Shown here: in pieces, positions 46,471 to 59,294 of the stretch
Position numbering within the stretch: the stretch's first letter is position 1
Layout: every line of letters starts with the position of its first letter
NCBI GenBank assembly: GCA_031417515.1
Contig: JANOVS010000214.1
Span: 13,871 to 77,870, forward strand
Source of the DNA: Hyphomicrobiales bacterium
GTDB lineage: Bacteria; Pseudomonadota; Alphaproteobacteria; Rhizobiales; Aestuariivirgaceae
DNA length: 64,000 nucleotides
Reading direction: 5' to 3'
Notes under the pieces: generated by a model
Database searches by the model: none
Seen by the model: only the letters and a program-made list of their open reading frames with translations
What the model was told of the DNA's origin: nothing
Translations under genes and position numbers: made by a program

Positions 46471-46606
46471 AGTTGGACGTCCAGCAAAAGAGATGTGAGT
46501 TTGGAACTATTGCCTGAAACAGGCTGAGCCGCAACTTTGATTGCAGGGCGTGCTTGATCTTGCGCCAATCAAATGGCTAGACTGGGAAAAAGCAAAGGGA
46601 GCAATC

Positions 46607-47071
46607 ATGGCAGGCAAAATTCTGGCGGACCTAAAGGCGGCAGGCATCGAACTGCCAGCCGCCGCCATTCCCGTGGCCAACTATGTGCCCGTGGTTCTGA
46701 GTGGCAACCAAGCCTTTGTCTCCGGACAAGTATCCATGTGGAACGGCGAAGTCAGGCATGTCGGTCGCCTCGGCCAAAACGTCAGCATTGAACAAGGGCA
46801 AGACGCCGCAAAACTTTGCGGCCTGAACATCATTGCCCAATTGCAATTGGCTCTCGGCGATCTGGACCGGGTTGTCCGCTGTATCAAGCTCAACGTTTTT
46901 GTGAACTCGACTCCAGATTTTACGGATCAGCCTAAAGTCGGTAATGGTGCATCCAATCTGATGGTGCAGGTTTTCGGTGAAACCGGAAAGCATGCCCGCG
47001 CCGCTGTGGGCGTGGCCCAATTGCCGTTTGGCGTGGCGGTTGAGGTGGATGGTGTGTTCGAGTTTCGCTGA
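46607..47071 (+). CDS. RidA/YjgF family protein
   Basis: 154 aa from the ATG at 46607. It has ...NQAFVSGQ... and the C-terminal ARAAVGVAQLPFGVAVEVDGVFEF. Confidence 0.8.
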   Translation: MAGKILADLKAAGIELPAAAIPVANYVPVVLSGNQAFVSGQVSMWNGEVRHVGRLGQNVSIEQGQDAAKLCGLNIIAQLQLALGDLDRVVRCIKLNVFVNSTPDFTDQPKVGNGASNLMVQVFGETGKHARAAVGVAQLPFGVAVEVDGVFEFR

Positions 47072-47081
47072 GTAAACCAGC

Positions 47082-48368
47082 TCAAATTCTGGCGTCGCGC
47101 AGATCAGCGAAATAAGTGTCACTGCCCAATTGGCCACCCTTCAGCGCGAGTTCAATGCCATTTAATTCGGCATTTGAACTATGGGTCATGCACATGGGTG
47201 AACCAGGTGTTTCCCGGATCGGTCGTCGAAGCGTCAGGGCATGCACATCGAGTTGCAAAACCGCATGGCTGGAACTGTCACCACCAGCAATGATGGCGCG
47301 GCGGATATTGGTTTTCTCCAATAGTTGACGAAGGATTTGGCCAAGACGTTCGCCAATTTTTTGGCGTGCGTCTGGTATCGTATTCAACTCGTGGCCTGCA
47401 TCGCTGGCGCTTCCAAGTGCTGTATGGATGAGCGGGCTTCGTCCCGTGCCGAGTACCATAAGTGCAGAATCAACGCATCGCTGTTGAAGCTGTCCATCAT
47501 CATCGCTGGCCAGTGCCATGGCTGAAACAGGCAGGGCCTCAAAGCCTTGCAATTGTGCTTGCCGGATTTGTCTCTCCGTCGTGGGTGAAACACTGCCAGA
47601 AACCACAATGGTTTGTGCGCAAGGTTGCAAAGGTTCAAAGGCAAGGGTGCGCAACTGTGGATCACTGGCGGCTGCCATGGCTCTTGCCAATGCATATTCA
47701 ACGCCTGAGGATCCGGCGATGAACAGCGATAGATCATGATGCAGTGCCAACAATTTTTGCCCCGCCGACAACTGGCTAGCCATGTCATGCACATCAAGTA
47801 AACCGATGCCGTGATCCGGCCAGCCATCACCTGCCAGCGAAATTGGCATGTTGGTTTGACGGGCCAGATGCAGCCGCAGATCAGCTTCATCCATGGGTGT
47901 CACCGGGTGGCGCGCCATCACAGGATGACGGTCGATGCGGTGCACTTGGCCTTGATAAGCAGCAAACAGATGCCCCGCAAATGTATAGCGCTTGAGTTGC
48001 GGTGCCCCCACCAACAGAGGTATCATCGATTGATTGAAAACCTTTGCCCCAATCTCAATCGCCCGCCCGATATTGCCGACATTTGGGCTGGAATCAAAAG
48101 TTGAACAAACTTTGTAATGATTGAATTTCGAATCCAGCGAACGCAACCATTCAAACAACGGCGGCAAATGTGCATTCATCCATGCAGGTGATTGGCTGCG
48201 GCTGCTGCCCGCCAATCCCACACCGGGAAACTGTGAGAAAGGTGCAAATTCCAGGGCAGTTGGAATGCGCGTAAATAAAACGGTCTCGATGCCATGCAGT
48301 CCCAATGACTCCATGACATCAGTCGAGCCGGTAAAATCATCGCCATAAAAACTGATCAGCCTGGTCAT
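47082..48368 (-). CDS. four-carbon acid-sugar kinase family (DUF1537, OtnK/OiaK-like)
   Basis: The N-terminus is ISFYGDDFTGSTDVMESL, in a 428-aa two-domain layout. Confidence 0.85.
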   Translation of the reverse strand: MTRLISFYGDDFTGSTDVMESLGLHGIETVLFTRIPTALEFAPFSQFPGVGLAGSSRSQSPAWMNAHLPPLFEWLRSLDSKFNHYKVCSTFDSSPNVGNIGRAIEIGAKVFNQSMIPLLVGAPQLKRYTFAGHLFAAYQGQVHRIDRHPVMARHPVTPMDEADLRLHLARQTNMPISLAGDGWPDHGIGLLDVHDMASQLSAGQKLLALHHDLSLFIAGSSGVEYALARAMAAASDPQLRTLAFEPLQPCAQTIVVSGSVSPTTERQIRQAQLQGFEALPVSAMALASDDDGQLQQRCVDSALMVLGTGRSPLIHTALGSASDAGHELNTIPDARQKIGERLGQILRQLLEKTNIRRAIIAGGDSSSHAVLQLDVHALTLRRPIRETPGSPMCMTHSSNAELNGIELALKGGQLGSDTYFADLRDARI

Positions 48369-49630
48369 GCGCCGCTTCCATCTGAAAAATGTGCAATGGA
48401 CTGGGCGAGTTCCGCATGTTGCCTGGCGTATTCCGGCAAGGGCACACCTGCCACTGCAGCTTCCCAGGCTTGCCGCACGGCCTTGACGCCAGCACCAGCG
48501 CCACCCGGATGTGAAACAATCCCGCCACCACAGAGATACATCAAGTCCACACTGCGGCCCGTGCGCTCAAAAGTATCGGGCGCCTGTCCGCCCCACTGTC
48601 CAGAACCGGCAACCGGAAGAGCGCAATCGCGGGGTTCAAACAAGGGCGTTGAAACCGCATGGAATGAGGCGACGAAACTTTCATCAGGCTCCCAATATTT
48701 TACCCGGATGCCGTTGATCTGAAACTGGTCAACTCCCAACAAACGCCAGAATTGCTGCCATACCTTGAAATCCATGCCTAGGCCCGGATGGCGCGTCAGC
48801 ATATCCCAACCATTGCGGTGCGCATGCAACACCAACCCGCTGCGCTTGCGCAAAAACGCCATGGCGCCAAAACCGATGGAATTGATATTGACGACGGCGC
48901 AATTGCCACCGTGTTTCATGACAATGTCATGGTTGCGCATCATCTCATCAGGATCAGTGGCCGAGATGCCCCACGCATACATGATTTTTTTGCCAGTCTT
49001 TTGCTCACGCTCATGAATCATCGGCATGATGGCCTTCACCCGCGCTTCAAGCGGTGAATAAACCGGTGACATCAGCTTTTCATCATCCTTGATAAAATCC
49101 ACATCGGCATCGATCACTTGTTTTACCAACGCCGCAGTCTCAGGCGGGCGCAAACCCAGTGCTGGTTTGATGATCGTGCCAATGATCGGGCGATCATGAA
49201 CCCCCGTCAATTGGCGACTACCAGCTACACCAAATTGCGGGCCAGGCCACGCCTTGCCAAAGGCCGGCGGCAGTTTCATGTCAACCACGCGAATGCCGCT
49301 GAAGCCCTTGATGGCGAATACACCACCAATGGCTATTGTCATTAAAGCAGCCAGATCGGTGCCAATAGCTTCAAATGGAAAAGCGATATCAGCCTCCGCC
49401 CGATTGAACGGACCTGAATCGACCGTCGGAAATGATGGTATCGCTGCAGCAGTTAAACTGCGCATGGCCATCACCCGGGCAGCGACACGATTTTTCAATT
49501 CCTCGGTTTCGCCGGGCACGGCCACAAAGGTTCCCGTCGATTGATCACTGGCAATTTTTTCAGCCAGTTTCTCCGGACTTCCCGGCGTTTCGATGAGATA
49601 GGTGAGGATTATTTGGCTATCATATGACAT
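48365..49630 (-). CDS. RuBisCO-like protein (form IV large-subunit homolog)
   Basis: 421 aa from the ATG at 49630. It has DVDFIKDDE (equivalent of the carbamylated-Lys motif), HAHRNG, and a C-terminal GGGIVSHPGG. No small-subunit or cbb genes are nearby. Confidence 0.85.
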   Translation of the reverse strand: MSYDSQIILTYLIETPGSPEKLAEKIASDQSTGTFVAVPGETEELKNRVAARVMAMRSLTAAAIPSFPTVDSGPFNRAEADIAFPFEAIGTDLAALMTIAIGGVFAIKGFSGIRVVDMKLPPAFGKAWPGPQFGVAGSRQLTGVHDRPIIGTIIKPALGLRPPETAALVKQVIDADVDFIKDDEKLMSPVYSPLEARVKAIMPMIHEREQKTGKKIMYAWGISATDPDEMMRNHDIVMKHGGNCAVVNINSIGFGAMAFLRKRSGLVLHAHRNGWDMLTRHPGLGMDFKVWQQFWRLLGVDQFQINGIRVKYWEPDESFVASFHAVSTPLFEPRDCALPVAGSGQWGGQAPDTFERTGRSVDLMYLCGGGIVSHPGGAGAGVKAVRQAWEAAVAGVPLPEYARQHAELAQSIAHFSDGSGA

Positions 49631-49634
49631 CGAA

Positions 49635-50672
49635 TTAACCCAGCAATTCTTCAAGAAAAACCGTGCGGCTTTCCGCAGCGGATTGATACACGGCTTCAAC
49701 AAGCGCAAAGGTTTTCAGATTGTCGCGGCCCGATGTTTCAGGTTGGCGACCCTGCAACAGGCAATCCACCCAATGCTGCTGGATCAATGAAACACTTTCT
49801 TGAATGTTATGCCAAGGCTTTGAGGCCCAAGACAAGACGGGCGGCGACACATCAGTCTTCGCCGTTGCACCTTTTCGTGTGACGTTGAGTTGATAGCCGG
49901 CACCTAGTCGAAGTGAACCAAGACTGCCATCAATCTCGATCAGCGTTTGCGGAAATAACTCATTCTCCAACTGCGTGGCATAAGAACAATCCACGATGGA
50001 AGCCACACCTTGTCCGTGATCAAGCAAGATGGTGGCAACATCTTCACCCTTGATTTGGGGGTTCACTCGTTTGATCCGTGCACTGACGTTTAAGGCATCT
50101 CCGAGGAGAAAACGCGCCACATCCAGTGCATGAATGCCGAGATCTTCAACAATAAACCGCTTGCCCTCGGCAAGATAGGGTTGGCCTGGAAACACATCAT
50201 AAGCCGAGCGGAAAGAAACCCGACCCCAAAACACCTCGCCTATCACACCTGACGAAATCACTTTTTTGACCGCTTGAATGGGCGATTGCCAACGGAAATT
50301 CTCGTGCACCATCATGCGAACGGAAGCCTTCTCACAGGCCACCACCATGGCCTTGGCATCAGACAAAGTTGGAGCTATCGGCTTTTGACAAATCACATGC
50401 ACACCGTGCCGCGCCGCCAATTCCACCAAGGCCCGGTGACTGGGTGCTGTTGTGGCAATGTCAACAAAATCCAGCTTTTCAGCCGCCAACATTTCATCAG
50501 CATCGGCATAGCGCTGCGCAATGGAAAACTGCTCACCGACAGCCGAAAGACGATCTGCATTCTGATCGCAAATAGCCACAATTTCGGCACCCCTGGCATC
50601 CCGCCAGCCATGCAGATGGTTGATGGAGAAAAACCCGCAACCAATCAAACCACCTCGCAATTTTCGAGACAT
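49635..50672 (-). CDS. Gfo/Idh/MocA family oxidoreductase
   Basis: 345 aa from the ATG at 50672. It has LRGGLIGCGFFSINHLHGW and ICQKP. It lies 4 nt upstream of the RLP gene. Confidence 0.85.
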   Translation of the reverse strand: MSRKLRGGLIGCGFFSINHLHGWRDARGAEIVAICDQNADRLSAVGEQFSIAQRYADADEMLAAEKLDFVDIATTAPSHRALVELAARHGVHVICQKPIAPTLSDAKAMVVACEKASVRMMVHENFRWQSPIQAVKKVISSGVIGEVFWGRVSFRSAYDVFPGQPYLAEGKRFIVEDLGIHALDVARFLLGDALNVSARIKRVNPQIKGEDVATILLDHGQGVASIVDCSYATQLENELFPQTLIEIDGSLGSLRLGAGYQLNVTRKGATAKTDVSPPVLSWASKPWHNIQESVSLIQQHWVDCLLQGRQPETSGRDNLKTFALVEAVYQSAAESRTVFLEELLG

Positions 50673-50949
50673 GTTAAATTCCACCATTATTTCGACAATC
50701 AAGGAATAGCTTTTTGCACGAAAATGGGAAGCGGATTTGGCAGAAGTTTATTGCTCAGCAAGCCCCCGGCCATATGCCGAGGCGGTTCATTATTACAATG
50801 ATAGTCATTGTGAGCGAAAATACATATTGAAGTGAATATCTTGGCAAACCCATGCTTATGGTAATTAAAGCGATCTGATTTGACTTTTGCGTCATAGCGC
50901 CTACATTGTCATACAGTAGCATATTCCCAAACTTTGGAAGATAAATACG

Positions 50950-51237
50950 ATGACCAGTGCGCGATTTTCACTTCGACTTGAACCAGAGCTCAAGGTTTGG
51001 CTTGAAATTGAAGCCAAGCGCCAGAAGCGTTCAGCAGGTTTCCTTGCGACCGAAGCCCTTCAGCATTTGAGGGAAACAACTGAGGCAAAACGCCAACTCA
51101 TTCGTGATGCTGCCCGCGAAGCAGAAAAAGGCGTCTTTGTTTCACAAGAGGCCGTGCATGTTTGGATGGATTCTTGGGATGCTGAAAATGAATTGCCGAT
51201 TCCTGAGCCTGACGTTTTTCTCAAAACCCGTGCCTAA
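50950..51237 (+). CDS. ribbon-helix-helix (CopG/ParD-like) antitoxin
   Basis: 95 aa. The N-terminal RHH is ARFSLRLEPELKVWLEIEAKRQKRSAGFLATEAL. Its stop overlaps the toxin start. Confidence 0.7.
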   Translation: MTSARFSLRLEPELKVWLEIEAKRQKRSAGFLATEALQHLRETTEAKRQLIRDAAREAEKGVFVSQEAVHVWMDSWDAENELPIPEPDVFLKTRA

Positions 51238-51533
51238 TGAAGATCATCTACCTCCACGAAGCACTCAAAGACATGCAATGGGTGCGACACTATTACCGCA
51301 ATGTGTTTCCAGCAGGTCAAGGCAATGCGCGAGAAAGCCTTAAAACTGCCGAGAGCACTGTTTCCCGGCATCCCTTCATTGGCCGGCCTTGCGAAGAGAT
51401 CGAGACAGGCCGCGAGTACAGGATCGGGCGCACACCTTTTTCATTTTTGTACCAAGTCTTCGACGACCGCATTGAAATACTCCGCGTCATCGACAACCGC
51501 TCAGACTGGATGACGAAGCGATTGGGTGGCTAA
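51237..51533 (+). CDS. ParE/RelE-superfamily toxin
   Basis: 98 aa. The segment ...PFIGRPCEEIETGREYRIGRTPFSFLYQVFDDRIEILRVIDNRSDW is a typical ParE C-terminal pattern. Confidence 0.75.
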   Translation: MKIIYLHEALKDMQWVRHYYRNVFPAGQGNARESLKTAESTVSRHPFIGRPCEEIETGREYRIGRTPFSFLYQVFDDRIEILRVIDNRSDWMTKRLGG

Positions 51534-52752: not shown

Positions 52753-53745
52753 ATGACATTCAAAGCACTGCTTGTTGAAAAAGCTGCCGACGGAAAAACC
52801 TCGGCGCACGTCCGCGCAGTTTCCACCGACCAATTGCCGCCGGGCAATGTGCTGGTTGATGTTGAATACTCAACGCTCAACTACAAGGATGGCCTTTGCT
52901 TGGGAGCAGGAGGTGGATTGGTGCGCACCTATCCCCATGTGCCGGGGATAGATTTTTCGGGCACCGTGAATTCATCCGAGGATCCGCGATATAAGCAGGG
53001 TGACAAGGTCATCCTTACCGGCTGGCGTGTCGGTGAATCCCATTGGGGTGGCTATGCCGAGAAAGCCCGGGTCAACGCCGATTGGCTGGTGCCTTTGCCC
53101 GCTGGACTTACCACAAGGCTGGCCATGGCCATTGGCACGGCGGGTCTCACATCGATGTTCGCCATCCAATCGCTGGAGCGCCACGGCTTGAAACCGGGCA
53201 GTGGTCCAGTGCTGGTGACCGGGGCTTCCGGCGGTGTTGGTTCAGTTGCCGTCGCCTTGCTGGCTGCGGCTGGCTATGAAGTGGCGGCAGTCACCGGGCG
53301 GCCGGAAACCGCTGACTATTTGAAGTCACTGGGTGCCAACCAGATCATCGCCCGCGAGTCAATTGCAGAAACTGTCAAGCGTCCACTTGAAGCTGAAAAT
53401 TGGGCGGGCTGTATCGATGCTGTCGGGGGTGCCATGTTGGCGCGGGTTTTGGGACAAATGAAATATGGCACAAGTGTTGCCGCCGTTGGATTGGCCGCCG
53501 GTGCCGCCCTGCCTGCATCCGTCATTCCGTTTCTGCTGCGCGGCATCAACATTCTCGGCATTGATAGCGTGATGCGGCCTTATGACGACCGCGTTCAAGC
53601 TTGGAAAAAACTGGCTGAATTGTTGCCGCTTGATAAACTGGAAGCCATGATTGTGCCCGCAACATTGGCTGATCTGACAAAACTGGGCGAAGAAATTTTG
53701 CAAGGCCAGGTGCGTGGCCGCGTCGTTGTGGATGTCCGGGCCTAA
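52753..53745 (+). CDS. MDR-family oxidoreductase, YhdH/AcuI (acrylyl-CoA reductase)-like
   Basis: ATG at 52753 follows GGAGGA. It has VLVDVEYSTLNYKDGL, VPGIDFSGTV and VLVTGASGGVGS. Confidence 0.8.
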   Translation: MTFKALLVEKAADGKTSAHVRAVSTDQLPPGNVLVDVEYSTLNYKDGLCLGAGGGLVRTYPHVPGIDFSGTVNSSEDPRYKQGDKVILTGWRVGESHWGGYAEKARVNADWLVPLPAGLTTRLAMAIGTAGLTSMFAIQSLERHGLKPGSGPVLVTGASGGVGSVAVALLAAAGYEVAAVTGRPETADYLKSLGANQIIARESIAETVKRPLEAENWAGCIDAVGGAMLARVLGQMKYGTSVAAVGLAAGAALPASVIPFLLRGINILGIDSVMRPYDDRVQAWKKLAELLPLDKLEAMIVPATLADLTKLGEEILQGQVRGRVVVDVRA

Positions 53746-54731
53746 AGTATTCGGCGCAACACAATCGGCAAGGCAATCGCCACAATCAGCAGGCAGCCGA
53801 TGGTGACGCTGATGACAATGCCCGGCACATTGATCAGTGAGAGCGCCAGCGTGGCAAAGCCCAGCACAAACACCGCCAGCACCACGCCGCCAATCGTGCC
53901 CGTGCCGCCGGAAATCGAAACGCCGCCTAAGATCACCATGGTGATGATTTCAAGTTCCCAACCCAAGGCAATGTTGGGCCGTGTTGAACCAATGCGCGAG
54001 GTCAACAAAAAAGCTGCAAGTCCGGCCATCAGGCCCGTCAAAACAAACAACATCAGCTTCATGCGGTCAACGCGGATGCCGGAAAACTGTGCGGCCACCG
54101 GATTGTTGCCAATCGCATAAATCTTGCGTCCGGTTGCGGTTTGCGAAAGGAAAATCCCAAAAGCCAGCGCCAACAGCAAAAACAGGGCGAAAGAATAGGC
54201 CATGGGCGGCCACTTCAACAGATAGCCTTGGCCAATCGTAGAAAAACCGGCGGGATAAGTGGTGACCGCCTGATCGCCCAGCACGACTTGCGCGATGCCG
54301 CGAAACAGCGACATGGTGCCGATTGTCACGACGATGGAAGGCAGCCCCAAGCGGGTTACCAGCAAACCGTTGAAAAAACCGCACATCGCCCCCACGGCAA
54401 TGCCTATGAAAGCCAGCGGCACCGGGCCAAAACCCAAACCCGCACAAAGCCCCATGGCGAGGGAAGACAATGAAATAATTGCTGCCACCGACAGGTCAAT
54501 CTCGCGGGTCAGTATCAACAGCGCCATGGGCAAGGCAATGATGGCTTTTTCAGAAAAATTGAAAGTCGCATCCGACAAGGTCCAGATGTCAAGAAAGTAA
54601 GGCGAAATCCATGTGCCCACCGCGAGGACTGCAAGCAACAGCAATGCCAGAATGAATTCCCAGCGCAACAGAATGTCGCTCCAGCGGAAAGCCGCTTTGT
54701 CCAGAACCTCATAACGCGGTGCCGTGCTCAT
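53742..54731 (-). CDS. sugar ABC transporter permease (RhaQ/RbsC-like)
   Basis: 329 aa from the ATG at 54731 (ATGA overlap with the upstream permease gene). It is polytopic and has the branched-chain/ribose-type permease pattern. Confidence 0.9.
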   Translation of the reverse strand: MSTAPRYEVLDKAAFRWSDILLRWEFILALLLLAVLAVGTWISPYFLDIWTLSDATFNFSEKAIIALPMALLILTREIDLSVAAIISLSSLAMGLCAGLGFGPVPLAFIGIAVGAMCGFFNGLLVTRLGLPSIVVTIGTMSLFRGIAQVVLGDQAVTTYPAGFSTIGQGYLLKWPPMAYSFALFLLLALAFGIFLSQTATGRKIYAIGNNPVAAQFSGIRVDRMKLMLFVLTGLMAGLAAFLLTSRIGSTRPNIALGWELEIITMVILGGVSISGGTGTIGGVVLAVFVLGFATLALSLINVPGIVISVTIGCLLIVAIALPIVLRRIL

Positions 54732-55717
54732 GCAATGCCTCCAGCATTTTTCCGGGCTTCTGGCAGGATCAGTTTGCCCGCCCGCTTTTCGCTTCGTGCA
54801 TTGACGATCACCGCAGCCAGAATCACGGCACCCGAAATCGCCATCTGCCAGAACGGTGAAACATTGATGACCGGCAGGGCATTCACCACAACACCGAGAA
54901 ACAACGCACCAAGCAGTGCTCCCGCAACGCTTCCCAACCCGCCGGCAATCGACACCCCGCCAATCACACAAGCCGCAATGATGGTGAGTTCAAAGCCATT
55001 GGCAATATCCACATAGGCGATACCATAGCGCGATACCCACAGTGCACCACACAGGCCCGACACCGCGCCAGCCAAACCATAGACAAGCAACAGGTGGCGC
55101 GGAATATTGATGCCGCAAAACCGCGCCGCGACAGGATTGCCGCCAATGGCGTAGAGTGATCGTCCGACAGCACTGTGGTTCAGAAACAAATAGAATGCAC
55201 CACTGACCAACAGCGCAAACCAGACCAGAATGTGAATGCCAAGCAAGGTTGTTTTGGGAAAAGCCACGAAGGCGGGAGACATGTCATCCGAAGTCAGCCA
55301 TGCCCCGCCCGCGATGACAAAAATCATCCCGCGATAAATCGCCAATGTGCCGAGGGTGACAACGATAGGCGGAATATTGAGATAGGCTACCAACCCTCCG
55401 TTAACCAGCCCGAGACCAGCGCCAACGACGATCGACAACAGCAGCACAAATGGCATGGGAACCCCTGGAAAAGCCGCCGCAAACAGGGCTGCGACCATGC
55501 CCGTCAAAGCCAGATTGGAAGCCACGGAAAGATCAATGCCCCGCGTCAGGATAATGGCCATCTGCGCGAGGGCCAACATGAACAAAAACGATGTATCAAC
55601 AAGCATGGCATAAAGACTGTCAATGCCGAGGAATACCGGAGCACGAATGCCAACTGCTATGGCCAATGCCAACACGATCAGCGCCAATGCAGCTTCGCGG
55701 GAGCGCAGAAATTTCAT
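54728..55717 (-). CDS. sugar ABC transporter permease (RhaP/RbsC-like)
   Basis: 329 aa polytopic protein. It overlaps the ATPase gene end by 4 nt. Confidence 0.9.
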   Translation of the reverse strand: MKFLRSREAALALIVLALAIAVGIRAPVFLGIDSLYAMLVDTSFLFMLALAQMAIILTRGIDLSVASNLALTGMVAALFAAAFPGVPMPFVLLLSIVVGAGLGLVNGGLVAYLNIPPIVVTLGTLAIYRGMIFVIAGGAWLTSDDMSPAFVAFPKTTLLGIHILVWFALLVSGAFYLFLNHSAVGRSLYAIGGNPVAARFCGINIPRHLLLVYGLAGAVSGLCGALWVSRYGIAYVDIANGFELTIIAACVIGGVSIAGGLGSVAGALLGALFLGVVVNALPVINVSPFWQMAISGAVILAAVIVNARSEKRAGKLILPEARKNAGGIA

Positions 55718-57207
55718 GCGGCTTGCTCCACGAAAGCGCCTGTTGCTGCAGAAACAATTTGTTCGCGTGTTGCGGCATGACGCTCATATCGTGCAACGAT
55801 CCGTCCCTCTGCCATGACAATAATGTTGTCAGACATGCCCATGATCTCGGGCAGTTCTGACGACACGAGGATGATGGCCAAACCTTTTTGCGCAAGTTCG
55901 CTCATCAAGCTGTGAACCGCGGCCTTTGAGCCAATATCAATGCCCTTGGTTGGTTCATCCAGAATCAGGATTGTGGGATTGGATGCCAGCCATTTGGCGA
56001 TCACAACCTTTTGCTGGTTGCCGCCCGACAAATCACCAATCCGCTGGTCCCAGTTGGCCGCTTTCACTTCCAGTGAATGCCCAAGTCCTCTGGTGGCTGC
56101 CAATTCCTTGTCGCGTGACAATAATCCACGCACCACATGTTGGTGCAAGGAGGCAAGTGTTGTGTTTTCACGCACCCCCATGGGCAAGATTCCACCTTGT
56201 ACCTGACGATCTTCTGGCACATAGGAAATGCCGTGGGCTATGGCGTCACTCGGCAAGTTGATTGTAACTTCCTGTCCGCGCAACTTGATCGAACCACGAA
56301 TTGTCTTTCCAATGCCGAAAAGCGCCTGCATGGCTTCCGACCGACCAGCCCCCACCAAACCATAAAAACCCAGGATTTCACCTTTGCGAACGGCGAACGA
56401 TATGTCTGCAAACTCAGTGGCATTGGAAAGGCCTTCAACCCGCAGAACTTCTTCGTCAAGCTTCGCTTCCCGCTTCGGGTAAATCTGGTCAACCGGACGA
56501 CCCACCATCAGTCGCACCAGGTCGTTCTGCGTCACATCCTTGATGGCCCCATCGCCAACTTTTTCACCATCACGCAAACACACCCAACGATCCGCCACGC
56601 GAAAGATTTCATCAAACTTGTGGGAGATGAAAAGCACGGCACGGCCTTCGGCTTTCAAGCGGTCAACGATTCGAAACAACTCATCAATTTCGCGGGCTGA
56701 AAGTGAGGCGGTGGGTTCATCCATGATGACGATGCGCGAGTCATGCGACAATGCGCGGGCAATCGACACCAAATGCTTTTGCGCAACACCGAGGCGTTTG
56801 AGCAATGTTGCCGGATCAATTTCAGCTTCAATGGAGTTGAGAATATCGCGAGCCTTCAGCATCATCGCGGACCAATCAATCAAGCCGGATTTTTTGCGCG
56901 GCGCATGACCCATGAAAATATTTTCCGCCACCGTGAGTTCATCGAACATCGCGGTTTCCTGGTGGATGGCGGTGATGCCGGCTTTCCAGGAATCGGCTGG
57001 ACTGACGAAGGATTGCAACTTGCCGTTCACTTCAATGCTTCCGGCATCCGGGCGGTAAATGCCCGTCAACAACTTCACCACCGTCGATTTGCCAGCCCCA
57101 TTTTCACCAATCAGCGCGGTGACCTCGCCAACGGCCAAGCTGAAGCCCACATCATGCAAGGCACGAACGCCGGGGAAGGATTTTGAGAGGCCGGTGAGTT
57201 TCAGCAT
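55714..57207 (-). CDS. sugar ABC transporter ATP-binding protein with duplicated NBD (RhaT/RbsA-like)
   Basis: 497 aa. Walker A is GENGAGKST and the signature is LSGGNQQKV, with two ABC cassettes. Confidence 0.95.
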   Translation of the reverse strand: MLKLTGLSKSFPGVRALHDVGFSLAVGEVTALIGENGAGKSTVVKLLTGIYRPDAGSIEVNGKLQSFVSPADSWKAGITAIHQETAMFDELTVAENIFMGHAPRKKSGLIDWSAMMLKARDILNSIEAEIDPATLLKRLGVAQKHLVSIARALSHDSRIVIMDEPTASLSAREIDELFRIVDRLKAEGRAVLFISHKFDEIFRVADRWVCLRDGEKVGDGAIKDVTQNDLVRLMVGRPVDQIYPKREAKLDEEVLRVEGLSNATEFADISFAVRKGEILGFYGLVGAGRSEAMQALFGIGKTIRGSIKLRGQEVTINLPSDAIAHGISYVPEDRQVQGGILPMGVRENTTLASLHQHVVRGLLSRDKELAATRGLGHSLEVKAANWDQRIGDLSGGNQQKVVIAKWLASNPTILILDEPTKGIDIGSKAAVHSLMSELAQKGLAIILVSSELPEIMGMSDNIIVMAEGRIVARYERHAATREQIVSAATGAFVEQAA

Positions 57208-57244
57208 GGGGATTTGGGGTAAATGTTGTGGATTGCCATAGCGT

Positions 57245-57328
57245 CGTCATCCCCACGAAAGTGGGGATCCAGACTTTCCACATGATCGCATGTTGCAAGT
57301 CTGGGGTCCCGCTTTCGCGGGAATGACG
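57245..57328. repeat. 84-bp REP/MITE-like palindromic element, copy 1
   Basis: CGTCATCCCCACGAAAGTGGGGATCCAGACTTTC...AAGTCTGGGGTCCCGCTTTCGCGGGAATGACG. The two arms are inverted copies, and each contains a GAAA/TTTC-loop hairpin. A second copy is at 60753-60836. Confidence 0.8.
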
Positions 57329-57400
57329 ATGTTGAGGATTGGTTTTGCAATGCCGCACTGCCTGATCAATCAACCGAGCAATGCAGCGGTGTCATTTCAA

Positions 57401-58423
57401 TCAGAATATCTTCGAGAACTGTTCGATATTCGATTTGTCGAAGGTGAATGGATCAGCCATGGCAGCGTCGCCGTCGGGACCGATTTTGATGTCGCCCATG
57501 CGGCCAGCGGCAACAGCTGTATCAGCCGCACAAGTTGCCGTTCCCCTGACAAGCGCAATGGCAATCATGGTTGAAGCGTAGCCCAGATCAATCGGGTTCC
57601 AGATGGCGAATGTATCGGCGGAACCATTGAGCACGGCACTCTTCATTTCCGACGGCAAACCAAGACCCGACACATAAACCTTGCCGACCAGTCCTGCATC
57701 TTCCACGGCCTTTGCCGCTGCAACGATGCCAACTGATGTTGGAGCAATGATACCTTTCAGGTTCGGGAAGGCTTTCAGCAGGCCTTGGGTTTCGCGGTAG
57801 CTCTTGTCCGCCACGTCGTCGCCATAAACTGTCGAGACCAGTGTCATCTTGGCATATTCAGGTTTGGCCCATTCCTTTTTCATTTCCTCGATCCAGATGT
57901 TCTGGTTTGTGGCTTGTGCGGTGGCCGAAAGAATTGCCACTTCGCCTTCGTTCTTCAGGGTCTTGGCCATCATCTGCACGCACTTCGAGCCGATAAGGGC
58001 ATTGTTGGATGGATTGAGATGCATGATGCGGCCTTCCTTGGCCACGCCGGAGTCGAACGAAATCACCTTGATGCCGCGTTCCATGGCTTTCTTGCACACG
58101 GGCACAAGGGCATTTGGATCATTGGCGGAAATCACAATGGCATCCACCTTCTGGGCGATCAGGGCATCGATCACCGCAATCTGTTCTTCAGCCGTTGTTT
58201 TGGTGGGGCCTGTGTAGATCAGTTCCACACCGCCAGCCTCCTTGGCAGCTTCCATGCCACCATCACGGCAGGCATCAAAGAAGCCAATGCCCAAGGCCTT
58301 GACGACCATGGCGACGCGAATGTCAGCCGCGTGGGCTGTTGAAGTGAAAGCCAACGGGCTTGCGCCGACAGCAATACCGGCTGCAAACAATTTCAGTGTG
58401 TCACGACGATTCCTAGTAACCAT
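57401..58423 (-). CDS. periplasmic sugar-binding protein (RhaS/LsrB-like) with Tat-type signal
   Basis: ATG at 58423 follows GGGAGGAC. The signal is RNRRDTLKLFAAGIAVGASPLAFTSTAHA. The mature part has IRVAMVVKALGIGFFDA...VELIYTGP...AQKVDAIVISANDP. Confidence 0.9.
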   Translation of the reverse strand: MVTRNRRDTLKLFAAGIAVGASPLAFTSTAHAADIRVAMVVKALGIGFFDACRDGGMEAAKEAGGVELIYTGPTKTTAEEQIAVIDALIAQKVDAIVISANDPNALVPVCKKAMERGIKVISFDSGVAKEGRIMHLNPSNNALIGSKCVQMMAKTLKNEGEVAILSATAQATNQNIWIEEMKKEWAKPEYAKMTLVSTVYGDDVADKSYRETQGLLKAFPNLKGIIAPTSVGIVAAAKAVEDAGLVGKVYVSGLGLPSEMKSAVLNGSADTFAIWNPIDLGYASTMIAIALVRGTATCAADTAVAAGRMGDIKIGPDGDAAMADPFTFDKSNIEQFSKIF

Positions 58424-58493
58424 GGTAGTCCTCCCATATTTTAACATTGAAATGCGTGAAGCATTCCGGTTTGCACGTTTTCAACCCCGGCAA

Positions 58494-59294
58494 TCATGCC
58501 GCCGCTGAAACCGAATTCTGTTGTTCCCCCACAATCATCACCTCAACCCCCGCTTCACGCAACACATTAAGCATGGCGGTTGGAGCAGCACTGTCTGTTA
58601 TCAATGTATGCACGCGCGAAAGATTGCAAACGGCTATCGATCCACGCGGTTCGAACTTTGACGAATCCGCAACCACAATCAGTTTTTCAGCCCGTGATAA
58701 AAGTTTGGCTTCAGCCCTGGCAATCAACGGGTCGCCTTCTACGATGCCAAGCGGCGTGACGGCATAGCAACTCATGAACATTTTCGACGCCGTGAAATGC
58801 TGGATGGCATCTTCATCAAATGGCGACAGAATAATGCCTTGTTCACGGTAGACCTCGCCGCCGGGCAAGACGATGCGATTTTCACTGGTCGCAATAAGCT
58901 CCTGGGCAATCGGCACTGAGTTGGTGAGAATCTGCATGCGCCGTGTACGGAGGAATTCCGCCATGAACCAGGTTGTGGACCCGGCATTGATAATGATCGA
59001 TTCACCATTGCTGCAAAGTTGTGCCGCAGCTTGTGCCAATTGCCGCTTGCGTTGGGCATGCAAGGTCTGGCTGACGTCAAATGAGCGGGTTGCAAGATGG
59101 GTTTGCCGGGCAATTTCGATGGCTTCAACCCCGCCATGCACCCGCCGCAATTGTCCCATGGCCTCAAGTTTCACCAAGTCGCGGCGCATTGTGGCAGAGG
59201 AAGCACCGAGCGTCTGCACCAGGTCGCGCACCCGAATGACACCGCGTGTACGTACAAGCGTCAATATTTTTTGGCTGCGTTCGCGTTCATGCAT
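58494..59294 (-). CDS. DeoR/GlpR-family transcriptional regulator
   Basis: The N-terminal HTH is RSQKILTLVRTRGVIRVRDLVQTLGASSATMRRDLVKLE, followed by a C-terminal sugar-phosphate-binding domain. Confidence 0.9.
   Translation of the reverse strand: MHERERSQKILTLVRTRGVIRVRDLVQTLGASSATMRRDLVKLEAMGQLRRVHGGVEAIEIARQTHLATRSFDVSQTLHAQRKRQLAQAAAQLCSNGESIIINAGSTTWFMAEFLRTRRMQILTNSVPIAQELIATSENRIVLPGGEVYREQGIILSPFDEDAIQHFTASKMFMSCYAVTPLGIVEGDPLIARAEAKLLSRAEKLIVVADSSKFEPRGSIAVCNLSRVHTLITDSAAPTAMLNVLREAGVEVMIVGEQQNSVSAAA

Follow-up and report, generated by a model that had tools for sequence, protein, structure and literature searches.

Three routes have been described for D-apiose and D-apionate, of which the first two are among the closest known systems to the genes considered here. 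The oxidative route for D-apiose (route 1) uses the enzymes ApsD, ApnL, ApnO, OiaK and OiaX (Carter et al. 2018 Nat Chem Biol, as summarised in PMC13753588). Route 2 comprises ApnO, OiaK and OiaT, and route 3 comprises ApnO, OiaC, LerK, EryH and EryI; OiaC acts on unphosphorylated 3-oxo-isoapionate, in a route that does without OiaK (PMC13753588). The DNA analysed in this work (the window) is a stretch of 64,000 nucleotides from a freshwater-sediment Hyphomicrobiales bacterium (assembly GCA_031417515.1, contig JANOVS010000214.1, positions 13,871 to 77,870), and forms part of a contig that we refer to as C214. On its minus strand, between positions 47,082 and 50,672, lie three genes that encode an oxidoreductase of the Gfo/Idh/MocA family, a RuBisCO-like protein (RLP) and a DUF1537 kinase, and that we designate apsD, oiaX and oiaK. 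Since an ApsD, an OiaX-type RLP and the kinase are found together, this operon very probably supplies three enzymes of route 1. A first-pass annotation, made from the letters alone, had assigned the trio to the D-apiose/D-apionate catabolism that the Gerlt laboratory elucidated, and our analysis supports this placement. The same annotation had interchanged several enzyme names: the name OiaX belongs to the RLP decarboxylase, OiaT to the RLP transcarboxylase/hydrolase, and OiaC to the decarboxylase used in route 3. To our knowledge, OiaC is not an RLP. The operon is thus a member of a described pathway, and its close homologues are already correctly named in NCBI and JGI. The bacterium is probably able to use D-apiose, a pentose of plant cell walls; beyond correct annotation the significance of the finding is small.

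Comparison with the route 1 clusters of Rhizobium rhizogenes and Mesorhizobium reveals both likenesses and differences. The window proteins are 65-67% (ApsD), 76% (OiaX) and 49-51% (OiaK) identical to their counterparts, the order and coupling of oiaX and oiaK are those of the reference clusters, and ApnO is present in the window genome. On the other hand, the genes of this genome are split over contigs, with ApnO next to maeB, and the window operon has no GntR gene between apsD and oiaX. Nor was an importer of the CUT2 binding-protein/DUF2291 type detected in the genome, and its only ApnL-like gene is a paralogue that falls below the model cut-off. Route 2 resembles the window operon in having a DUF1537 kinase followed by an RLP that acts on 3-oxo-isoapionate-4-phosphate, but its RLP, OiaT, is a transcarboxylase/hydrolase that yields 3-phosphoglycerate and glycolate. 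The window RLP differs in that it passes the OiaX model and that its operon contains ApsD. A further relative is the 3-oxo-tetronate pathway (OtnK, OtnC, OtnI), which was reportedly described for L-threonate and D-erythronate by Zhang et al. in PNAS in 2016. Here too a DUF1537 kinase acts on a 3-oxo acid sugar and decarboxylation follows. In the window, however, the decarboxylase is an RLP rather than an OtnC of the class II aldolase type, the genome has no second DUF1537 gene, and the kinase reaches only 140 bits where the OtnK model requires 350. It also scores 42 bits against a cut-off of 450 on the DtnK model, so that a kinase specific for threonate or erythronate, which had been raised at first pass as a possible objection, is not what was found.

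Identity of the three genes

The first gene of the operon, apsD (49635..50672, minus strand, 345 residues), was assigned as an orthologue of D-apiose 1-dehydrogenase from its Pfam domains and by orthology. Its product contains the GFO_IDH_MocA domain together with C-terminal domains, and its best structure match, over the full length and far ahead of all others, is PDB 5uhw with four sister entries (E 1e-147). The 5uhw protein is 100% identical to the product of the Gfo gene that the R. rhizogenes apiose cluster carries between the ABC permease gene and ApnL, and it is reportedly the D-apiose dehydrogenase ApsD whose structure was solved by Carter et al. (2018). The apsD product is 65% identical to this R. 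rhizogenes protein (PDB 5UHW) and 67% identical to its in-cluster counterpart from Mesorhizobium, in an ungapped alignment of 341 residues. For a wider comparison, 80 loci encoding close relatives of the RLP were fetched, and the reference proteins were mapped onto them by tblastn. The in-cluster Gfo gene was found to be 61-85% identical to apsD at the protein level in more than 60 loci, and the other Gfo paralogues of the window genome are at most 29% identical to it. Dozens of proteins that are 74-86% identical to the apsD product carry the JGI label "D-apiose dehydrogenase".

These data bear on the identity of ApnO, the D-apionate oxidoisomerase, a role that the first-pass annotation had given to the Gfo/Idh/MocA protein. 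ApnO possesses a ketol-acid-reductoisomerase (KARI)-like fold and a binuclear metal site (2026 paper, PMC13753588). A protein of 275 residues encoded in the apiose clusters (PF16896/KARI_N-like) matches PDB 5t57 with an E value of 2e-123. Because of this match and the KARI-like fold of ApnO, we assign the 275-residue PF16896 protein as ApnO; the Gfo/Idh/MocA protein is not ApnO. The features that mark ApnO, namely a KARI-like fold, a length of about 275-296 residues, a C-terminal PF16896 domain and a binuclear metal site, are not those of the window Gfo gene. The oxidoisomerase role was therefore misassigned, and the gene for ApnO lies elsewhere in the genome, at C219:3035-3862. The earlier statement that no apiose dehydrogenase is evident must likewise be dropped, as the Gfo gene is itself the ApsD orthologue. 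It had also been supposed that the pathway might start from a different substrate; since a first enzyme of the D-apiose-oxidising ApsD type is present in the operon, this assumption is not needed. For annotation, it follows that the Gfo/Idh/MocA gene of apiose loci should be named as the first-step dehydrogenase and not as the oxidoisomerase.

The second gene, oiaX (48365..49630, minus strand, 421 residues), was assigned as 3-oxo-isoapionate-4-phosphate decarboxylase by the NCBIfam equivalog NF042437 and by orthology. Its product scores 759.9 bits on this OiaX model, above the cut-off of 700; the R. rhizogenes in-cluster RLP scores 786.9 bits. It contains the Pfam domains RuBisCO_large_N (PF02788) and RuBisCO_large (PF00016, 3e-73), is 75-78% identical to the RLPs of the Mesorhizobium and Rhizobium apiose clusters, and has relatives at 82-86% identity that are named OiaX or 3-oxoisoapionate-4-phosphate decarboxylase by NCBI and JGI. 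It is the sole RuBisCO-family gene of the genome, and in nearly all of the 80 related loci oiaX is directly followed by a DUF1537 kinase gene. The DFIKDDE, HAHRNG and GGG motifs noted earlier in the translation are indeed there. When aligned to the RuBisCO of T. kodakarensis, the window RLP retains the KDDE motif of the carbamylated Lys and Mg (DFIKDDE), the HR pair and the first Lys of KPK; the KPK motif itself has become KPA, and Gln stands at the position of H327. The set of RuBP-binding and catalytic residues of a true RuBisCO (K175, K177, K201, D203, E204, H294, H327 and K334, in spinach numbering) is therefore not complete in this protein. Because the second Lys of KPK is Ala and the equivalent of H327 is Gln, we read the window RLP as a form-IV protein and not as a carboxylase, and on the form III RuBisCO model it reaches 230 bits, below the cut-off of 497. 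A DK-MTP-1-P (2,3-diketo-5-methylthiopentyl-1-phosphate) enolase, the other assignment that had been considered for this protein, does not fit: the scores on the two MtnW models were 144 (cut-off 409) and 116 (cut-off 514) bits. The closest solved structure is PDB 3NWR ("A rubisco-like protein"; E 6e-105, full length), which shares the KDDE, HAHRNG and GGG motifs. This match amounts to about half of the self-score, the entry gives no function, and 3NWR probably belongs to another RLP subgroup.

The third gene, oiaK (47082..48368, minus strand, 428 residues), was assigned as 3-oxo-isoapionate kinase from Pfam, from its best-scoring model and by orthology. The product has the two-domain DUF1537 architecture, with SBD_N (PF07005, 3e-39) and NBD_C (PF17042, 1e-26). 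It is 49% identical over its full length to the Mesorhizobium in-cluster kinase and 49-51% identical to the Rhizobiales reference kinases, and homologues that are 58-65% identical to it bear the JGI label "3-oxoisoapionate kinase". No other DUF1537 gene was found in the genome.

Proposed route and the unlinked genes

From orthology, we infer the substrates and products of these genes as follows. ApsD, an NAD+-dependent enzyme of the Gfo/Idh/MocA family, would oxidise D-apiose to D-apionolactone, which would then be converted to D-apionate, either by a lactonase, the best candidate being an ApnL-like gene on contig C97, or by slow spontaneous hydrolysis. The KARI-like ApnO, encoded on C219, would oxidise and rearrange D-apionate to 3-oxo-isoapionate, and OiaK would phosphorylate this at C4. 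OiaX, with its predicted carbamylated-Lys/Mg2+ site, would decarboxylate the resulting beta-keto acid to L-erythrulose-1-phosphate and CO2. Finally, a second triose-phosphate isomerase (TIM) paralogue (EryH/LerI-like, C132) and RpiB (C169) may carry the product to erythrose-4-phosphate. L-erythrulose-1-phosphate is the product given for OiaX under EC 4.1.1.121. That decarboxylation of 3-oxo-isoapionate 4-phosphate takes place at C1 has been confirmed (PMC13753588). The choice of lactonase and importer, as well as the co-regulation of the unlinked genes, is likewise presumed in this scheme.

The genes that would complete the route were sought in the whole assembly, which is 3.6 Mb in 270 contigs and 91% complete. 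It contains a single ApnO orthologue (C219:3035-3862), which is 73% identical to the Mesorhizobium ApnO and is followed by the malic enzyme gene maeB. Among 61 sampled genomes from the same family, an OiaX above the cut-off and an ApnO with an identity of 75% or more were found in exactly the same nine. This co-occurrence would be expected if the unlinked genes work together, although the related genomes are not independent of one another. A second TIM paralogue is located at C132:260-2163 (locus L090), beside an EryC-like TIM-barrel gene of the AP_endonuc_2 family, and shares 54% identity with TIM genes found downstream of OiaK in several loci; it is distinct from the housekeeping tpiA, which C186 carries, and the one RpiB gene of the genome is on C169. 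The C132 gene pair is similar to EryC and EryH, known from erythritol and erythrulose-phosphate metabolism.

The ApnL-like gene deserves a fuller description. It scores 619 bits on the ApnL model, is 41% identical to the Mesorhizobium ApnL, and is the last gene of an operon at C97:421-9905 (L089), preceded by genes for a GntR regulator, an HpcH-type aldolase, a 2-hydroxyacid dehydrogenase and a CUT1 importer, which consists of a binding protein of the SBP_bac_1 type, two permeases and a MalK-type ATPase. In a related metagenome-assembled genome (L008), an operon of this type (L008:12528-21251) directly adjoins ApnO-ApsD-GntR-OiaX-OiaK; this copy ends with a true 3-oxo-tetronate kinase, OtnK (614 bits), and abuts OiaK. 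ApnL-like genes also flank ApnO in two further related metagenome-assembled genomes (L012 and L014) and in genome G046. The operon also occurs in many genomes without OiaX. We suggest, tentatively and with more doubt than belief, that the entry to the apiose route has been rewired in this freshwater Hyphomicrobiales lineage, the C97-type operon being an undescribed import-plus-lactonase module that feeds more than one acid-sugar route.

Two CUT2 ABC systems lie near the trio in the window, one RhaS-like (53742-59294) and one XylF-like (from 59648), but a link with either was rejected, as plus-strand genes (acuI-like, rlmL and a toxin-antitoxin pair) intervene. The RhaS-like system has a binding protein that passes the rhamnose model, and neither system is similar to the apiose binding protein of the clusters.

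Points against the assignment and other explanations

A number of results weigh against the assignment to route 1. No gene of the 91%-complete assembly passes the ApnL cut-off, the best score being 619 against 750 bits. The observation of the first-pass annotation that no lactonase lies in the window thus holds for the canonical lactonase, and the canonical importer is not in the window either. ApnL-like genes may serve some other lactone, because they are far commoner in the family sample than OiaX (28/61 genomes against 9/61). Neither an orthologue of the CUT2 apiose binding protein/DUF2291 pair of the clusters nor the cluster-type GntR regulator was found in the genome; the best match to the binding protein, on contig C220, is 28% identical. 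ApnO is reportedly promiscuous, acting also on D-erythronate and D-ribonate (PMC13753588), so that its presence alone is no proof of apionate flux. Lastly, although the best NCBIfam model for the oiaK product is OiaK (NF042436), its score of 392 bits falls short of the cut-off of 700. This shortfall is uninformative, because the kinases inside the complete apiose clusters of Mesorhizobium (461 bits) and R. rhizogenes (463 bits) miss the cut-off as well, which leaves out the entire clade. The NCBIfam model appears to be too narrow for the kinases of Rhizobiales/Hyphomicrobiales, and owing to its strict cut-off the PGAP label remains "four-carbon acid sugar kinase family" even within complete clusters. 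The kinases in question are those at L082:11254-12591 and L047:11254-12585, in complete Rhizobium/Mesorhizobium clusters, and that at 47082-48368 of the window.

Other explanations of the trio were weighed. One is that it has drifted to another substrate, such as a different branched or rare pentose or its acid, and this would account for the absence from the genome of the canonical ApnL, CUT2 binding protein/DUF2291 and GntR; the kinase, at 49-51% identity to the Rhizobiales references, would also allow it. We consider drift unlikely. The RLP is 76% identical to the reference-cluster RLPs and passes an equivalog cut-off, ApsD is 65-67% identical to its references, and relatives of the same family join the trio to ApnO and, in some cases (L006, L011 and L041), to the CUT2 importer, which points to a continuum rather than to a separate clade. 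Less probable still is a self-contained lower pathway that starts from apionate or a similar acid sugar, in which the Gfo/Idh/MocA protein would be the oxidoisomerase that makes the 3-oxo acid. The trio is translationally coupled, it travels as a unit in several unrelated neighbourhoods, and there is no ApnO within the window, all of which would suit such a pathway. But ApnO is a two-metal enzyme of KARI fold (PMC13753588) and of the PF16896 family, and the genome has an ApnO of its own, whose occurrence in the family sample coincides exactly with that of OiaX. Moreover, the Gfo protein is 65% identical to one that adjoins a separate ApnO in complete clusters, and its homologues are named D-apiose dehydrogenase.

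It may also be asked whether this organism has only part of the pathway, the trio being a remnant that is used for cross-feeding on intermediates or that is on its way to being lost. The genes are fragmented over three contigs, the canonical lactonase and importer were not found in the assembly, and OiaX is patchy in the family (9/61 genomes). Against this, none of the three frames is disrupted and strong purifying selection acts on each, with ratios of nonsynonymous to synonymous substitution rates (dN/dS) of 0.07-0.12. In comparison with the closest locus, L004, the values were 0.115 for apsD, 0.071 for oiaX and 0.103 for oiaK, and all three genes are maintained by purifying selection. Independent metagenomes contain the trio at 85-99% identity. 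In addition, sugar lactones undergo spontaneous hydrolysis, and the completeness of the assembly is no more than 91%. We therefore regard a remnant as very improbable, and retain the assignment of the operon to route 1.

Related loci and operon surroundings

In about 50 Mesorhizobium/Rhizobium loci the cluster has a conserved order: ApnO, a substrate-binding protein of the Peripla_BP_4 family, DUF2291, ABC ATPase, permease, ApsD, ApnL, a divergent GntR, OiaX and OiaK. The ApnL of the reference clusters has 595 residues and no Pfam family, and passes NCBIfam NF049900 (962-1070 bits, cut-off 750); an open reading frame of 671 residues that lacked a Pfam match also proved to be a real ApnL. Intermediate layouts of the form ApnO-ApsD-(GntR)-OiaX-OiaK occur within the family of the window genome, and so does a bare ApsD-OiaX-OiaK trio, in unrelated surroundings, in five loci (L004, L009, L026, L030 and L085). 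The last of these, on a 2.66-Mb contig of a relative (L085:8084-12507), places the trio 2 nucleotides after a gene for a MurQ-like SIS-domain protein and upstream of putA, and so shows that the three genes move together from one neighbourhood to another. The ApsD-OiaX-OiaK form is one of several arrangements in the family, as only 3 of the 9 genomes that carry OiaX have an ApsD orthologue (identity of 69% or more). In six Aestuariivirga-type loci (L009, L032, L034, L053, L064 and L067), OiaX-OiaK is followed by deoC, whose product passes TIGR00126, and by a gene for an aldehyde dehydrogenase of 794 residues. The window genome has the same two genes at C219:9223-12599 (L087), 5.4 kb from ApnO. 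Whether this pair might be another outlet for the OiaX product was considered, and the linkage is reported here as an observation only.

The junctions within the operon are tight, as had been described at first pass, and the coordinates of the three coupled minus-strand genes are borne out. The apsD gene starts with an ATG at 50672 and ends with a TAA at 49637-49635. A gap of 4 nucleotides (ttcg) separates it from the ATG of oiaX at 49630, and the stop codon of oiaX, at 48365, is overlapped by 4 nucleotides (ATGA) by oiaK, which starts with an ATG at 48368 and ends at 47082. Gene calls on a public contig with a 99%-identical RLP agree with ours in the three proteins and in their spacing. Upstream of apsD lies a non-coding stretch of 277 bp (50673..50949), which, by its position, is the presumed promoter region; it is common to apsD and to a divergently transcribed RelB/ParE pair. 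A consensus scan upstream of apsD yielded promoter-like and terminator-like sites no more frequently than in shuffled sequence. No regulator gene adjoins the 277-bp region, in contrast to relatives in which a GntR gene separates apsD from oiaX.

The RelB-type antitoxin (95 residues, 50950-51237, plus strand) and the ParE-type toxin (98 residues, 51237-51533, plus strand) overlap by 1 base and separate apsD from rlmL. Both are also called (PF27535/PF05016) in the 99%-identical contig (L084). On the other side of the operon, a gene of the RidA/YjgF family (46541-47071, plus strand) converges with oiaK, with 10 nucleotides between the two stop codons, and is part of an adjoining aminotransferase/APH-kinase unit rather than of the apiose operon.

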